DNA from: a virus
Lineage: Duplodnaviria; Caudoviricetes
Strand: one strand, 5' to 3'
IMG/VR virus record: IMGVR_UViG_3300031953_000070
Location: 1-34,797 of that record
DNA: 34,797 nt
The notes beneath the pieces were generated by a model. It saw nothing but the letters and a program-made list of their open reading frames with translations. It searched no databases and was not told the DNA's origin. A program made the translations under genes and the position numbers. Of the stretch, positions 6,245 to 30,560 are shown piece by piece. The first letter of the stretch is position 1, and every line of letters starts with the position of its first letter.

Positions 6245-6715
6245 ATGAGAAAATTATCACTATTACTTTTATCTTTTTGCTTTATTGCCTGCGGAAGCTT
6301 CAAAGCTACACCTGTCATCATTGCGCCAGTCTCACAAGATGTCGTTTTAACACAGGGAAAAGACCAACTGTACATCAAAGCAAACACATGGATGGTTGAA
6401 AATTTTACCAGCGCAAAAAGCGTCCAGCAGTTCTCAGATAAAGAAGCGGGAATTGTCACAGGGAAATACCTATTAAAATCAGGTGGTCAATATTCACAAT
6501 ATGGCGATACTACTTATGAAATTTTTGCGATTATTAAAATACAGGTTAAAAATAACGCTGCCAGAATAACAATTTCTCCGGAAGAATATCAATCACTAAC
6601 ATCTGCATTCGTAAATGATGATCTGGCATACACCGAAGAAAAAGCACGGGCAGATATTAATACTTTAATATCTGGCTTCTCTAACTATATGACAAATCAT
6701 AAAGACACTTTCTAA
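6245..6715 (+). CDS. Lipoprotein, DUF4468-like; candidate lysogenic conversion/superinfection exclusion
   Basis: Lipobox FIAC; KDQLYIKANTWMVENFTSAKSVQQFSDKEAGIVTGK; co-oriented with the repressor. Confidence 0.65.
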   Translation: MRKLSLLLLSFCFIACGSFKATPVIIAPVSQDVVLTQGKDQLYIKANTWMVENFTSAKSVQQFSDKEAGIVTGKYLLKSGGQYSQYGDTTYEIFAIIKIQVKNNAARITISPEEYQSLTSAFVNDDLAYTEEKARADINTLISGFSNYMTNHKDTF

Positions 6716-7905
6716 TCATCCAGATTAATAATCAATTTCTGCGCTGCATCCCGCTCTTTTTCGCTAAACTTATCCGCATAGGCAGTATCAACATCATCGC
6801 GCTCATGCCCCATAAGTTCACGTATCATATCCACCTCAATATGCAAAAATTTTGCGCGGGTACGAAAACTGTGACGCATCACTTTACTGGTCAGGTTCGC
6901 GTCTATGGGACTGAGGGCAATGCCATGTTTTTGCTGCACTTTTATAAGCCATTTATTATGCTGACCACGCCAGGTAATATAAGATTTATGCGGTTTTTTC
7001 CAAGGGAAAACATATTCCCCCTCAGATGCCATATACTTTTCCAAAATTTTTCGCGCCGGTTCAAATACGCGTACATCAAATTCTATTTTTAGTTTTCCCA
7101 ATTTTCCGCGCTGGAACATTACGCGGTTACCGTACAATTGTTTTCTTTTCAGATAATACAGATCAAAGAGATCAACACCCCCCAGGTAAAACTGCAGCAG
7201 GGTAAGATCTACCACCATGGTACGCCTGGGCGATAACCCCGTGAGCGCTTGCAATTGCTTTATACCTTCTGGGTCAAGATAGCGGTTCTTTTTGCGTCTG
7301 CGCCGGGTAGGCAGATCGCGCGTAGCATTCTCAAACGGCGTTTTATCCTTTATCAGCATATCGGGATCCCGTACCGCCTTGTTATATACCGCCCTGAGAC
7401 AGCCTACATACTCTTTTACGGTTTTATTCGTGCAGCCATCAAGCTTGTACATTTTAAAGCGCTCAATAAAATCTGGCGTGATATCATCAAAGAAAAGCTC
7501 GTGACTGAAGTATTTAAACTGCTGCATCACACCCTCATAAAAAAGCGCGTTGCCATCCCTACCAGATGCCCGCATCCTTTTGGTTAAAACATCACAATAG
7601 CCATACACACTATTATTAGCGCCACCACCTTCGGTATTCTGCAAAAAGTCAAGCGCCTGATCCAGCCGCTCAATTCTTTTAAACTTTGACGTAACCGCCA
7701 CCGCCCGCATACTCAATATCATTTCAGAAAGCTGCTCAAATCTAGGATGCGCAGGGCGCGGCAATTGGGTAGCTTCGTTCCAGTGTTCCAGAATAGAATT
7801 ACCAATAGTTTTCCGTTTGCGCTTGCCATTATAAAGCACAAGTTTTACGGGAAAACCCTTTTTTGATTCCCCATCTGTAGTATATAATTGTATGGTAGCT
7901 TCCAT
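6712..7905 (-). CDS. int: Phage tyrosine integrase (Bacteroidota type)
   Basis: SAM-like domain plus catalytic region KVMRHSF...MGH...Y. The first catalytic Arg is replaced by D (GVDLFDL), as in many Bacteroidota integrases. Likely ATG at 7905; adjacent to attP. Confidence 0.9.
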   Translation of the reverse strand: MEATIQLYTTDGESKKGFPVKLVLYNGKRKRKTIGNSILEHWNEATQLPRPAHPRFEQLSEMILSMRAVAVTSKFKRIERLDQALDFLQNTEGGGANNSVYGYCDVLTKRMRASGRDGNALFYEGVMQQFKYFSHELFFDDITPDFIERFKMYKLDGCTNKTVKEYVGCLRAVYNKAVRDPDMLIKDKTPFENATRDLPTRRRRKKNRYLDPEGIKQLQALTGLSPRRTMVVDLTLLQFYLGGVDLFDLYYLKRKQLYGNRVMFQRGKLGKLKIEFDVRVFEPARKILEKYMASEGEYVFPWKKPHKSYITWRGQHNKWLIKVQQKHGIALSPIDANLTSKVMRHSFRTRAKFLHIEVDMIRELMGHERDDVDTAYADKFSEKERDAAQKLIINLDD

Positions 7906-7992
7906 TTTATCGTACAAAACACGTACAAAATGTACGTAAAATTAACGTAAATATAGACATTTATCACAAATGCGCAAGTCACGACAAAGCAC

Positions 7993-20520: not shown

Positions 20521-21345
20521 TTATTTTAGTTTATCAATTATTGATCTACGTTTGCAAATATTTGCAACGATATTCCATGCAATACCTGTATCAAGAGAGA
20601 TATGATGTATTATTTCACCATTCTCAAAACGCTGGCGCAATCTTCTGCGCATAGCTATCGGGTATTTATAATATTTTGATCTCTTATCATTTGCTCGTTT
20701 TTTAACTTCATCAGACATATCTTTATAGTTGTCCAAATGAGTTCCTAAAGCGATATTGTCTTTTGAATTATCCTGACAATTACCGTTTAAATGCCTTACG
20801 CAATCAGAAGTATAAACTTCATTCCCAAACTTTTGAAAAGCCTGTAATCTATGCACAAATACCTGTGACATATTGTGCTCTTTAAACGGTATGGAAAATA
20901 ATTTATATCCAAACTTATTATTGAATATTTTTTCCTCCACATCAAAGCCATTATAAAGAAGCGCTCCACAGTCATCAACTCCATAACCTAAGTGATATGC
21001 TCTTTCTGCTTTTTGCATATTTAACAAAGCTTCATTTATGATCTCCGATCCCTTCCCCAATTCAATGTTATCAATAGAACAATCTTGGGAATTAAGATTT
21101 AAATGGCGGATCAGCCTAAAATTATACAGCTTTGTTCCAAACTTCTGAAAAGCCTGTAACCTAGCTATATATATGGTTTGGGTCTTCCCATATCTTCTAA
21201 TAGAAAAATAAGTCTTACCACTTTTATTTTGCGAAGAATATTCACGGCCATTTAAATTATAGAGCGCTCCTGCTAGCGATACCCTAAAACCTTGATTATA
21301 GGCCTTTTCCTCTGGTTTCATGTTTTCATAAGTTTCTTTTTTCAT
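20521..21345 (-). CDS. HNH homing-endonuclease-like protein with tandem duplicated HNH domains and C-terminal HTH
   Basis: RLQAFQKFG...RHLN.N.QD.S.DNI.LG occurs twice; the second copy has intact VHR/HLNG/DN/N; AT-rich DNA. Confidence 0.8.
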   Translation of the reverse strand: MKKETYENMKPEEKAYNQGFRVSLAGALYNLNGREYSSQNKSGKTYFSIRRYGKTQTIYIARLQAFQKFGTKLYNFRLIRHLNLNSQDCSIDNIELGKGSEIINEALLNMQKAERAYHLGYGVDDCGALLYNGFDVEEKIFNNKFGYKLFSIPFKEHNMSQVFVHRLQAFQKFGNEVYTSDCVRHLNGNCQDNSKDNIALGTHLDNYKDMSDEVKKRANDKRSKYYKYPIAMRRRLRQRFENGEIIHHISLDTGIAWNIVANICKRRSIIDKLK

Positions 21346-26349: not shown

Positions 26350-27000
26350 TTAGTATTGATACATTTTACATTGAGCTTGTCTTACTGTCATACTTCCGGA
26401 TTGCTCAGATCCCGATGTATTTTCTTTTGTGTCTTTTTCGCTTTCGCGGGCTTCAAAATTTCTTTTTGCCACATTGGTATCGGCATATGCCGGATAAGTG
26501 ACTGGCGAAACATCGTATAGACGTTCTATTTTCTTGATTTGGCGCAATTCATTTTCCCCTTCTTTTTCGATCCAAACCACTTCACTTGCGCGAAATGCAA
26601 AAGAGGACTGGGTGACGTCACCGCTTTCAATCGCGTCCTGAAGATCAATGGCAAACGTGCGGTTTGGCGTTGTGTAGCTATATTTTAATCCAGTTTCATC
26701 TATAGTAAGGCTCAACGTGCCCTTACCTTCATTACTACGGGCGAGAACGAAATTTGGGCTGTGATTAAAAAGGCAGCGCACATCATCATTTAAGATATCA
26801 TCAAATGCACCTGGTAATATTTCTTCATCAAACCAGCCTAGATCTGTACGGCTGTTAAATTTTGCCGCATACCCTTCTATTACAAAAAGCGTGGTCTTTT
26901 TATCTCCTTCAGCACGTTTCTCTACAGAGACTGGCGCGTCAAAAAATCTGCGCTCCGCCTGTTCATCCATTACTTTTGCATAATCTTTAGACTGGCTCAT
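26350..27000 (-). CDS. HK97-family prohead protease
   Basis: IEGYAAKFN...EEILPGAFD...LFNH...SSFAF...LYDVSPVTYPAY. Confidence 0.95.
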   Translation of the reverse strand: MSQSKDYAKVMDEQAERRFFDAPVSVEKRAEGDKKTTLFVIEGYAAKFNSRTDLGWFDEEILPGAFDDILNDDVRCLFNHSPNFVLARSNEGKGTLSLTIDETGLKYSYTTPNRTFAIDLQDAIESGDVTQSSFAFRASEVVWIEKEGENELRQIKKIERLYDVSPVTYPAYADTNVAKRNFEARESEKDTKENTSGSEQSGSMTVRQAQCKMYQY

Positions 27001-28189
27001 TGCTTTGTTTTTTCATTTGTTCTTCAGTCATCATATTGACCATTTGCAATAGTTCGTTACCATCTTTCCGTGGGTTGAGTTCCTCTAATTTTCTAACTTC
27101 ATTAGGCGTCATGAGCTTAAAGGAAACCATGGTTTTATAATATTCCGCACGCGATTTCTGATCGCCCCTGAGCATACTGCGCAGATCGAATTTTATATAG
27201 TGATCCATCTTCTCCTTATCGGAAAACAGTTTGCGGCGGCATTCCTGCTCAATGTTTACCGTACGCGGCATCACACTGTCCTGCTGATGCTCTATGGTCA
27301 TCTGCTGCAGGTTGCTGTAATTGGAATTATCGAGGTGCTTTAATTTATGCGGGGCCACGTTTAGAAACTGGCAGATATGAATGATGCCGCGCGTGTCGGT
27401 TTCCAGCCATTGCGCTTCGGCCGGTGTAACGGTGATTCTTTTGTACTTGAAACCTTCATCCAGTAGCGCTACTTTATGTGCGCCTTCTGAAGACATTTTA
27501 GTTTGAAATGCATTTTCAATTTTCCCCTTATTATCTGCGGTAACATTCATGTCAGTCTCAAGCGTACCGTGCGATAAGCCCTGATTGCTGAACGTGTCAC
27601 CCACAAAGGTTTGTCCGCTCAAGGTGATTCCCATAGAATTTGCGGCGTAGGTAACAATGCCGGTGCCCGAATATCCATTTGTGGAAAAGAAATAGAGGTG
27701 AATCATATCATCGCCATCTATGACGTTGCCTTTATACTTGTAATACATCTTATCGCTGCCCTTGAGCGGCGTGACCTGGTCTGAATCCAAATGCATAAGG
27801 GAAACCACGTTGCCGGTAGCTTTATCCCGGACTATCTTTGCGTAACCGTTGCCCTTCACAATGGCGCAGTAGCACAGGTATTTCCAGAAATTGAAGGGAT
27901 TTTGATAGGGATTAGGTTCTTCGGAAATCAGTTTATGAACGGGGTGGTCTGATAATTTATTGAGGTTGTCACCGTCTTTCTGGAAGACAGCTTTGGGAAG
28001 TTTGGCGATATCATCTGTACACAGATTGACGCCATTGTAGAATGCACCCAGCGTGAGCGCGGAATTCTCATTGATTTTTGAACCGCTTTTAGTTACGGAA
28101 TTACCGAAAAACGGGAAACCACCACCATTTCTGGCGGTGGTTGCTGATCGCAAACTTATCGGTGAAAAGACGTCGTTAAGTATACCCAT
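26987..28189 (-). CDS. Portal protein, HK97 family
   Basis: IAKLP...PNPYQN...GNGYA...LLDEGFKY...MTPNEVRKLEELNP. Confidence 0.95.
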   Translation of the reverse strand: MGILNDVFSPISLRSATTARNGGGFPFFGNSVTKSGSKINENSALTLGAFYNGVNLCTDDIAKLPKAVFQKDGDNLNKLSDHPVHKLISEEPNPYQNPFNFWKYLCYCAIVKGNGYAKIVRDKATGNVVSLMHLDSDQVTPLKGSDKMYYKYKGNVIDGDDMIHLYFFSTNGYSGTGIVTYAANSMGITLSGQTFVGDTFSNQGLSHGTLETDMNVTADNKGKIENAFQTKMSSEGAHKVALLDEGFKYKRITVTPAEAQWLETDTRGIIHICQFLNVAPHKLKHLDNSNYSNLQQMTIEHQQDSVMPRTVNIEQECRRKLFSDKEKMDHYIKFDLRSMLRGDQKSRAEYYKTMVSFKLMTPNEVRKLEELNPRKDGNELLQMVNMMTEEQMKKQSNEPV

Positions 28190-28267: not shown

Positions 28268-28324
28268 TGAATTAATTGTGGGTGATTTTAGGGGTTTTTT
28301 GATTAGTTTATTATTTGCAGGGAC

Positions 28325-28492
28325 CTACAATAACACAATAAGAATGAAGCCTATTATTACCATTAGCACCACTACGACTAACATAAAGCCACTTCCTGTA
28401 TCTTGCCCTACAACCATGGGATCGTTAATTAAATCATCCCACGCGATATAATCATCTTCCTTAAGTTTATCTAAATAATTCTTGTCAATCAT
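28325..28492 (-). CDS. Small membrane protein (55 aa)
   Basis: MIDKNYLDKL...GFMLVVVVLMVIIGFILIVLL. Confidence 0.5.
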   Translation of the reverse strand: MIDKNYLDKLKEDDYIAWDDLINDPMVVGQDTGSGFMLVVVVLMVIIGFILIVLL

Positions 28493-28525
28493 AATTATGG
28501 TTTAGAAATAATTTATATATTTTTA

Positions 28526-28547
28526 ATTATGGCGAATTCGCCATAAT
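28526..28547. repeat. Perfect 22-bp palindrome
   Basis: ATTATGGCGAATTCGCCATAAT just past the recombinase stop codon. Confidence 0.8.
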
Positions 28548-28553
28548 ATCTAC

Positions 28554-29357
28554 TTAATTAATTAAGCTTGTCAAATTTCTGGCAGAATCAATCGAGGTTT
28601 CCACATAAATGCGAGTGGTCTTTTCGTTTTTATGGCCTAGGGCATCCTGTATTTTAGCCAGATCATTACCGGCATCATACAAATGCGTGGCGAAACTTTT
28701 TCTAAGGGAATGAAAACGGTATTTTTTACCGATATACTTTTTTACGATCGCGGTGCAGCTGGATGGGGAATATTGCTGCCGCCAGTCCTGACCAGTGAAT
28801 ACGTACTGCTTGGTTTTATATTCCCTGAAATACGCAATCAGCATATCGATTATTCCTTCTGAAATAGGCGTGTACCGGTCTTTTGCACCTTTACCGTCAC
28901 GCACCAGAATAACGCCCTGGTCCCGGTCAATATCCTTCCACTTCAAACTGATCACTTCTGAAACACGCAGCCCACAGCCATAGCCCAGCGCTATGATTGA
29001 CCGGTGTTTTAAGTTGGCTATCCGCGGTAGCACTTGAAGGATGTGATTTCTAGGAATAACGGGCTGCTTGTGCGTGACTTTACGCGGCCGTTCAATTTTA
29101 TCTAAATGAACCTGAGATTTACCAAGAATATATTTTGCAAATAGTTTTAAACTGCCTATAATCTGGTTTTGCTGCGAAGTGCTTTTATAATTTCTGTTTT
29201 CCAGATAATCTTCAATTTGCTTTTGCGAAACCTGATGCGGGTCTTTAATATTCTCATTTTTAAAGAACTCCTGAAGATAGTGGGTGTAAACTTCTATGGT
29301 TCTTTCCGCATAGCGCTTGTATCTTAATTTTCTCATGTAAACTTCCAGAACTTTCAT
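28554..29357 (-). CDS. Integron-like/XerD-like tyrosine recombinase
   Basis: SAM-like N-terminus YAERTIEVY...STSQQNQ; GLRVSE, GKGAKDR, HSLRKSFATH, LGH, TTRIY. No IntI-specific insertion is visible. Confidence 0.9.
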   Translation of the reverse strand: MKVLEVYMRKLRYKRYAERTIEVYTHYLQEFFKNENIKDPHQVSQKQIEDYLENRNYKSTSQQNQIIGSLKLFAKYILGKSQVHLDKIERPRKVTHKQPVIPRNHILQVLPRIANLKHRSIIALGYGCGLRVSEVISLKWKDIDRDQGVILVRDGKGAKDRYTPISEGIIDMLIAYFREYKTKQYVFTGQDWRQQYSPSSCTAIVKKYIGKKYRFHSLRKSFATHLYDAGNDLAKIQDALGHKNEKTTRIYVETSIDSARNLTSLIN

Positions 29358-29418
29358 AAGTGGTTAGTGTGTTAGTAAGGGTTAGTTAATAGGGTGGGGT
29401 TATATGGGTGTTGTATGC
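29358..29418 (+). other. attI-like site
   Basis: GTTAGT repeats at 29363, 29371 and 29381, then core G|TTGTATGC at 29410. Confidence 0.6.
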
Positions 29419-29428
29419 AATTGCCTAA

Positions 29429-29680
29429 TTACCATTTTTTAAGCTTAGTATCTAAGCCCTTGCCTCTTAATGTTTCCCAATCTTCGTCGGTCACATCTTT
29501 CGGCAACTGTTCGCTTTGCCCTACAACACGGTCTATAGATAATTGCTGGTCAGCGTACTTTTGCATGGCATTTTTTATATCCGCAAAGAGGTTTCCGTTA
29601 ATTTCTCCTGTTTCAGATATATAATTTAAATTTGCTTTATTAGGCTTGATTTCGTTTATAAAATCCTCTTTTGTCTTCAT
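29429..29680 (-). CDS. Cassette 1 ORF, hypothetical
   Basis: 83 aa; QLSIDRVVGQ is encoded by the attC left arm. Confidence 0.7.
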   Translation of the reverse strand: MKTKEDFINEIKPNKANLNYISETGEINGNLFADIKNAMQKYADQQLSIDRVVGQSEQLPKDVTDEDWETLRGKGLDTKLKKW

Positions 29681-29742
29681 TTTTATTTGGTTAAGTTATT
29701 TTTTAATTCTGCAACAATCCATAGACTAATCCGTTGTAGTGC
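29518..29742 (+). repeat. attC-like site 1
   Basis: CTACAAC-ACG-GTCTATAGATAATTGC ... GCAACAATCCATAGAC-TAATCC-GTTGTAG. Confidence 0.7.
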
Positions 29743-29743
29743 A

Positions 29744-30028
29744 TTAAGTATATACATATCTACAATCAGGCTCGTGGCAAATATCGGCTTCATCTGTAAT
29801 GGTAACTTCTGTACTTCCACACCAAACACATTTGCTATGTTCTGGGTGTTCCTCGCTATTTACTTTTAAGTGAGAATAGTCGTTACCATCAGAATAACGC
29901 ACTACAACACTATGTATAGTTAATTGCTCTATTGCGAATTTTAAAGTTGAGTAGGCGGCATTGCTCACATCTTTACTTTTGTGAAGTTCTTCAAGTGCTG
30001 TGCTTATTTTTTTTGTATCGTAATTCAT
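29744..30028 (-). CDS. Cassette 2 ORF with C-terminal zinc ribbon
   Basis: 94 aa; QLTIHSVVVR comes from the attC arm; CVWC...CHEPDC. Confidence 0.7.
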   Translation of the reverse strand: MNYDTKKISTALEELHKSKDVSNAAYSTLKFAIEQLTIHSVVVRYSDGNDYSHLKVNSEEHPEHSKCVWCGSTEVTITDEADICHEPDCRYVYT

Positions 30029-30097
30029 TTGTTTTTATTTATTAAATTCAGTTATTAATTTGTTCGCAACCATCCATACCACCAGACCGTTCTAAAC
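29899..30097 (+). repeat. attC-like site 2
   Basis: GCACTACAAC-ACTAT-GTATAGTTAATTGC ... GCAACCATCCATAC-CACCAGACC-GTTCTAAAC. Confidence 0.7.
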
Positions 30098-30238
30098 AAT
30101 AAAAACAATATTGGTATACCCCCATTTTACAAGCAGATCATTTGCCCTCTTTTTAGTTGTTTCTCGTATACGACCATAGACCTCATTATTTTCCTCATTT
30201 TTAGCCTCATACTTAAATTCTTTAAAATTTAGTCCCAT
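30092..30238 (-). CDS. Cassette 3 ORF (48 aa), hypothetical
   Basis: MGLNFKEFKYEAKNEENNEVYGRIRETTKKRANDLLVKWGYTNIVFIV. Confidence 0.6.
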   Translation of the reverse strand: MGLNFKEFKYEAKNEENNEVYGRIRETTKKRANDLLVKWGYTNIVFIV

Positions 30239-30254
30239 ATTTATTGTTTTTACA

Positions 30255-30386
30255 GTTAAGAACACGGTATAAAATCCAGTCTTACGCGTGTTTGGTTAAT
30301 TTGTTTTACTCAATTTGTTTTGGTGTGCTTGCCGTCAAATTCCTACGGAATTATGACGACCGTATCTTATACTAATCAGTTAGTAT
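30255..30386 (+). repeat. attC-like site 3
   Basis: GTTAAGAAC-AC-GGTATAA ... inner hairpin 30333-30358 ... TTATACT-AATCA-GTTAGTAT. Confidence 0.7.
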
Positions 30387-30560
30387 TTATTTTTTAGAAA
30401 AAGCCTGGTAAAACCTAAACCCCACCGCTATAGTGATCAGCATTAGCAGCGCTACCCATGCAATTCTAAAATTATTAATGGCTATATAGTCTAGATCAAG
30501 AAGCATTGTTTCAGCAAAAAGAATGGCCAGCGTACTTATTATGGTTATGACTTGTTTCAA
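30387..30560 (-). CDS. Small two-TM membrane protein (57 aa, TTG start)
   Basis: MKQVITIISTLAILF...IAWVALLMLITIAVGFRFY; TTGA-coupled to the upstream gene. Confidence 0.5.
   Translation of the reverse strand: MKQVITIISTLAILFAETMLLDLDYIAINNFRIAWVALLMLITIAVGFRFYQAFSKK

Follow-up and report, generated by a model that had tools for sequence, protein, structure and literature searches.

Does the short region between the portal and terminase genes of this phage genome act as a platform on which gene cassettes are exchanged and, if it does, is it an integron? An initial annotation, made from the sequence alone, had described an integron-like element with three cassettes at this place in the window (here, the whole stretch of 34,797 nt that was analysed). 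We find that the element is real and mobile, and that it works like an integron, not a classical one: an attI-like site with a crossover at G/TT (the slash marks the point of exchange) lies beside the recombinase, and the cassette ends are paired arms with an unpaired central spacer. We did not class it as an integron because three further features of integrons, namely the I2 domain, extrahelical bases and the orientation of the cassette genes, were tested and found to be different here. We consider it probable that the element is a gene-cassette platform with exchange exactly at G/TT, likely carried out by the adjacent I2-less recombinase on the bottom strand in its folded form and finished by replication.

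Layout of the element

The setting within the packaging module was borne out, as was the identification of a second tyrosine recombinase in a phage that has another integrase. The features, in window coordinates, are as follows.

6712–7917, minus strand: the phage's other integrase (context; PF13102), likely for lysogeny
26987–28189, minus strand: portal gene (context)
28554–29357, minus strand: short tyrosine recombinase, 267 aa, PF13495 and PF00589, IntI-related, no I2 insertion
29358–29412, plus strand: attI-like docking site, crossover between 29410 and 29411; common to the variants, which differ after GTT; GTTAGT repeats at 29363, 29371 and 29381
29411–29733, plus strand: cassette 1, swapped for others in three variants (L003, L050 and L052)
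29429–29680, minus strand: cassette 1 open reading frame (ORF), 83 aa, starting in the hairpin loop and then running through the left arm
29521–29739, plus strand: attC-like site 1 (AAC 29525, GTT 29733), R' side longer by 3 nt, stem positions 10 and 15 occupied by wobbles
29734–30089, plus strand: cassette 2, found again deeper in the L003 array
29744–30028, minus strand: cassette 2 ORF, 94 aa, with a loop-encoded head and a body-encoded tail
29902–30095, plus strand: attC-like site 2 (AAC 29906, GTT 30089), 4 extra nt, wobbles at 10, 14 and 15
30090–30379, plus strand: cassette 3, bounded by GTT cores
30092–30265, minus strand: cassette 3 ORF, 57 aa from a GTG; an internal ATG may be the real start
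30257–30385, plus strand: attC-like site 3 (AAC 30261, GTT 30379), interior 98% identical to an L052 site on a different gene
30379–30392, plus strand: distal half of the original docking site, where the backbone resumes in L050 and L052
31193–32911, minus strand: terminase large subunit (context), best cultured match Cellulophaga phage phi39:1 (51%)

All four GTT cores (29410, 29733, 30089 and 30379) and the inverse cores (GCACTACAAC at 29899, GTTAAGAAC at 30255 and TACAAC at 29522) stand where they had been annotated, together with the three GTTAGT copies of the attI-like site and a fourth in the final half-site at 30379. The claim that each inverse core matches the 5' end of its own cassette held strongly for cassettes 2 and 3, but the 6-bp match of cassette 1 lacks significance on its own. 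Any one core match is weak evidence when taken alone, since matches of at least 9/10, found twice in the 1-kb array, also occur four times in the remaining 33.8 kb. When half-site profiles were built from 13 further loci, with the window and L003 excluded from training, they matched the 34.8-kb window four times, all inside the array; in addition, the ends of cassette 3 pair over 22 nt at 86%, and GC content is 0.339 in the array versus 0.427 in its flanks. DNA folding of whole sites, proposed as a check at the outset, gave a long stem for site 1 but neither for site 2 nor for site 3; direct comparison of the arms was used instead. An Rfam search gave no match at either threshold. The first core lies 53 nt from the start of the recombinase, so the locus is not a CALIN (a cluster of attC sites with no integrase nearby).

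Between the recombinase and the portal gene, a stretch of 250–300 bp (28290–28590) with a 55-aa ORF (28325–28492) is absent from L003 and L050; a 10-mer within it, at 28405, is identical to R'' of site 1. An HNH endonuclease gene lies among the tail genes (20521–21345). The host is probably a member of the Flavobacteriaceae, judging from the best matches of the terminase (phi39:1, above) and of the recombinase (closest named relative in Lacinutrix iliipiscaria, 62%), in agreement with the Bacteroidota host first suggested. Runs containing the stretch are labelled brine metagenome, and none of those listed is an RNA run.

Cassette changes in the same phage and in cultured phages

Variation at the GTT boundaries among relatives, on which the initial annotation had staked its claim, was found in three of the five distinct contigs of the same phage (recombinases 94–100% identical; L003 and L051 are the same). 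In L003, L050 and L052, the docking site is as in the window and divergence begins at the predicted G/TT, 0–3 nt past the GTT at 29410–29412, each contig continuing with different cassettes; L050 and L052 are back on the common backbone at 30379, and window cassette 2 recurs approximately 2.9 kb deeper in the L003 array. The remaining two contigs (L001 and L002) retain the window array. The empty site had been held to be reconstructable: both of its flanks are common to L050 and L052, but an empty docking site had 0 matches in the viral contigs. Of 23 listed loose contig ends in eight runs (three of the runs may be the window's source, and three more ends fall outside the list), 15 are no more than 5 nt away from a core or from R'' at 30261, and no back-joints of cassette circles were listed in the contigs of these runs. 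The recombinase is intact in L050, interrupted by the contig end in L052, and altered by a stop at codon 76 and by R161W in L003.

Two further observations concern whole elements and repeated cassettes. The L002 terminase protein is 95% identical to that of the window whereas its recombinase and array are identical, which points to a recent exchange of the element in its entirety. In another locus (L007), one cassette is present twice by eye (approximately 670–1110 and 2110–2550 nt upstream of the recombinase), the pattern that copy-out and re-insertion would be expected to leave.

Among cultured phages, Freya, Danklef, Leef and Ingeline have recombinase homologs (31–46% identity) in the same layout, and the homolog in Freya matches the window enzyme at only 37% identity. 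Among the seven of ten Freya strains sampled (1, 2, 5, 6, 8, 9 and 10), all six isolates compared with the reference, Freya_10, differ from it exactly at GTT, with junction homology of 3–4 bp. Four deletions start from attI (4942, 4100, 3198 and 307 bp; 3 bp homology), one runs between two hairpin sites (902 bp; 4 bp homology), and Freya_6 has an extra 472-bp cassette at attI that is absent from Freya_10; all changes lie at GTT or GTTG, and the remaining genome is at least 99.99% identical. The isolate table gives E27_4/1/1, 4/1/2 and 4/1/3 as Freya_9, _10 and _8, such that the array would have changed during purification if isolate names trace plaque lineage; Freya_6 and _7 were sampled on two different dates. 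A donor of the Freya_6 cassette was found neither in phages beyond Freya_6 and _7, nor in viral contigs, nor in 121 genomes, and 401 further genomes gave short AT-rich matches only, the host genome being knowingly included in neither genome set. Because no donor was found, and because all Freya forms could be losses from a longer ancestor without capture, these isolates do not prove cassette capture. In the arrays of both L003 and Freya_10 (L022), some cassettes have tiny gene-less bodies of approximately 55 nt, each with a hairpin of its own; very long loops with whole genes come after them.

Danklef_2 and _3 are without a 781-bp methyltransferase cassette, precisely at GTTA, and Danklef_4 likewise by coverage only. 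The Danklef recombinase is truncated, without its 5' half and docking site, which in Danklef_5 (L025, 13700–14480) are replaced by array sequence; Danklef was considered as a negative control and rejected, as it also loses a cassette. A Danklef cassette region (L025, 10722–11011) is 76% identical over 290 nt to Polaribacter phages P12002L and P12002S, which links a published CALIN phage to the cassette pool.

Because a cassette was lost in Danklef despite a truncated enzyme, and because the L003 enzyme is broken, the adjacent recombinase is presumed to be the catalyst; action in trans is plausible, since the hosts have longer homologs of their own whose sites share this geometry. The cassettes and sites could then be real with a host's longer chromosomal homolog doing most of the recombination, leaving the phage enzyme dispensable or minor. 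Besides the Danklef and L003 enzymes, nine long homologs with eight half-site matches downstream, none upstream, and the same wobbles favour this, as do the integrase-less clusters reported for Polaribacter phage P12002L in the available text of PMC9892861; however, attI of the phage itself was used in four of the five Freya deletions, the first core lies 54–66 nt from the recombinase start codon in most of the 45 loci listed, and none of 34 close homologs departs from the catalytic residues, all of which make a largely host-driven process unlikely. The arrays of the long homologs have sense-strand genes in the three loci printed. Chromosomal homologs of approximately 370–390 aa, with arrays downstream and sense-strand genes, occur in L044, L039, L040, L188 and L189, and the first cassette of L039 resembles a toxin–antitoxin pair.

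Hairpin sites and the recombinase

To return to exchange by the phage's own enzyme, site anatomy was assessed across homolog loci (125, or 104 after removal of duplicates), in which site and locus counts are not independent events because the loci are related. Around 88 short homologs, half-site matches numbered 109 in 300 kb upstream versus 2 in 366 kb downstream (training loci included). Core and inverse core matched at 9/10 or better in 266 of 324 sites (shuffled mean 18, maximum 29), the site profile for this count having been refined on confirmed sites. With ends set independently (n = 208 sites), true arms paired at 11.7 of 16 positions versus 7.6 for shuffled partners, and pairing was best with 3 extra nt on the R' side in 103 sites and with 2–4 nt in 177, giving an asymmetric central spacer. 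Arm spacing ranged from 40 to more than 1000 nt, with arms co-varying in sequence.

Strand differences were assessed in 154 of these 208 sites (the other 54 were set aside because their arms paired weakly or at other shifts). G·T pairs were 12-fold biased, with 259 on the bottom strand versus 21 on the top, and concentrated at stem positions 10 (91) and 15 (130), at both of which each of the three window sites has a wobble. The bottom strand was computed to be more stable in 150 of the 154 sites; for window site 3, the arms-only duplex slightly favoured the top strand (−11.3 versus −10.8). A left-arm bulge added two or more pairs in only 7 of the 154 sites and is unneeded in the three window sites; the extrahelical bases of the R''–L'' arm that mark integron sites are not a feature of this set.

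The window enzyme has the catalytic residues R131, K156, H216, R219, H242 and Y251, and it is not an IntI: the IntI-specific I2 additional domain is absent, and its K156-to-HxxR segment has 67 residues versus 112–114 in four IntIs (65–71 in 19 short homologs, 71–72 in 8 long homologs and 77–79 in two Xer proteins). It scored 150 bits against TIGR02249, for which the cut-off is 265, and its alignment to 2a3v is split. A structure model (pLDDT 87) had VchIntIA (2a3v) as its best Foldseek match, unlike the best sequence match, XerA, and a search of plasmids with the recombinase returned mainly IntI1 at 27%. An unrooted tree, in which one of the Xer rows is partial, separates the short and long forms from both IntI and Xer (99/91).

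Partners that share only GTT, variable complementary arms and one-sided wobbles are together best explained by a single strand exchange on the folded bottom strand, followed by replication. Accessible portions of earlier work establish bottom-strand folding and replicative resolution for IntI (PMC2727003, PMC5027507 and PMC3458562). For the phage recombinase, the predicted substrate is likewise the bottom strand of each hairpin site in folded form, which it would cut; replication would complete the exchange, and the wobbles with the asymmetric loop may replace the I2/extrahelical-base code for strand choice.

The compact enzyme might instead act on double-stranded inverted-repeat sites by two strand exchanges, as Xer or Cre does, with the hairpins incidental. 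Although the lack of an I2 insertion, the XerA-like best sequence matches and the lack of extrahelical bases would suit such a mechanism, double-exchange systems of the Xer/dif type, with short double-stranded sites, need spacer identity between partners, whereas the crossover partners here have only 3–4 bp in common; the distance between co-varying arms and the 12-fold strand bias of the G·T wobbles also speak against it, and we regard it as quite improbable. It is scarcely credible that assembly chimeras, or microhomology events of the RecA/RecT type among AT-rich repeats, account for the differences, even though the variants were assembled from metagenomes (three carry the assembly id of the window itself) and the Freya genomes are described as short-read assemblies in the available text of PMC8776804, given that the window array recurs in L001 and L002, that variant junctions recur in separately assembled runs, and that 6/6 Freya junctions fall on predicted GTT cores with so little homology.

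Cassette genes and relationship to known systems

All three window cassette genes face the docking site, and two begin inside their own hairpin. Among 133 complete cassettes from 41 loci, 127 ORFs point towards attI and 2 away, and 4 cassettes have no ORF; relative to integron cassettes, whose genes point away from attI, orientation is thus inverted in 3/3 window genes and 127/129 genes of relatives. The genes may be read by leftward phage transcription instead of a Pc promoter. A Bacteroidota −7 promoter motif was enriched neither by strand nor in the loops, and the array has no copy of it on the minus strand. Forty-five ORFs of the 133 cassettes run from the loop across the left arm, 39 of them in one frame.

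The three cassette proteins matched no family in Pfam, NCBIfam or PHROGs, and the cassette 1 ORF had no homolog other than itself. The cassette 2 protein had 22 homologs (5 with its head and other tails, 7 with its tail behind other heads, 9 with the tail alone, and 1 being itself), with the head-to-tail switch at the valine codon of R''. At the DNA level, 51 pairs, including window site 3 and L052, combine a common hairpin interior with unrelated bodies, AAC marking the boundary. The converse, the same body with a different hairpin, was seen among 41,041 pairs in only 8, all weak and for the most part due to shared leaders; the protein homologs are the better evidence. If recombination occasionally takes place at the R'' AAC, a hairpin could be joined to a different gene body, with the protein head encoded in its loop kept in frame. 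Recombination at R'' has been reported for classical sites without extrahelical bases (PMC2727003, in the portion available); such recombination fits the chimeric heads, and descent from shared site families fits them too.

Pfam named 20 of 132 array proteins (118 of the 133 from other loci, and 14 from variants): 7 DNA methyltransferases, 4 YopX, 3 ADP-ribosyltransferase-like and 6 others. One phage cassette protein (L153, 4833–5264) matches Pfam Arr-ms (rifampin ADP-ribosyltransferase, E = 1.9 × 10−8) and lies next to an ART-PolyVal cassette.

Like integrons (IntI, VchIntIA 2a3v and IntI1), the phage system has a recombinase pointing away from attI, crossover at G/TT, the core/inverse-core signature, folded sites with a bottom-strand G·T bias (a bias already known for classical attC, at 1.24 versus 0.39 per site in the available text of PMC5027507) and an enzyme whose best structural match is 2a3v. 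Unlike them, it has neither the I2 insertion nor extrahelical bases, it has 2–4 extra nt on the R' side and wobbles at fixed positions, and its genes are inverted, many starting inside the hairpin. With Xer proteins (XerA, XerC and XerD) and dif modules it shares a compact catalytic domain without I2, but the window lineage is a separate tree branch with long variable hairpin sites and crossovers without spacer identity. Phage integrons and CALINs, as far as described in the accessible text of Qi et al. 2023 (PMC9892861), which includes Polaribacter phage P12002L, resemble it in being cassette arrays in phages with DNA methyltransferase cargo (here 7/132 proteins), but the complete integrons of that set occur in phages of proteobacteria and have true IntIs, and the main text of that paper describes neither an I2-less partner enzyme nor the present site geometry. 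The 'integron-like' tyrosine recombinase subgroup of Smyshlyaev et al. 2021 (PMC8138268), compared by its description in the available text, is presented there with no cassette arrays or sites tied to its insertion-less members. The open-access literature, including the accessible parts of PMC8618304, PMC8352920 and PMC11523902, contained no description of an I2-less enzyme with its sites (subscription papers being mostly outside this scope). For the Freya source paper, 'integron' and 'cassette' occur 0 times in the main text of PMC8776804 and 'integron' 0 times in its supplement, files 2, 5 and 6 aside. By these comparisons, the element appears to be a variant of the integron kind with a putatively new enzyme–site pair.

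A broader proposal, for which we see roughly even chances, is that Bacteroidota and their phages hold a second, independent kind of integron: an I2-less lineage using folded single-stranded sites read via fixed G·T wobbles, with back-to-front cassettes captured from a phage-specific pool, rearrangement within a few rounds of plaque purification, and in-frame swaps of hairpin heads. The I2 helix has been held to be the innovation that lets integron integrases recombine folded single strands, with natural intermediates said to be lacking (PMC7790495, in the portion available). A natural I2-less enzyme heading arrays that change precisely at GTT makes this claim testable, and a ready system is at hand in the deposited Freya_1, Freya_10 and host (DSM111233, DSM111234 and DSM111048); if the proposal is true, I2 is not required for single-strand cassette recombination. 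Standard searches find almost no integrons in Bacteroidota, according to the available text of 10.1101/2022.02.28.482270, and an I2-less system could explain this near-absence, together with the origin of many small accessory genes and methyltransferases in flavobacterial phages.
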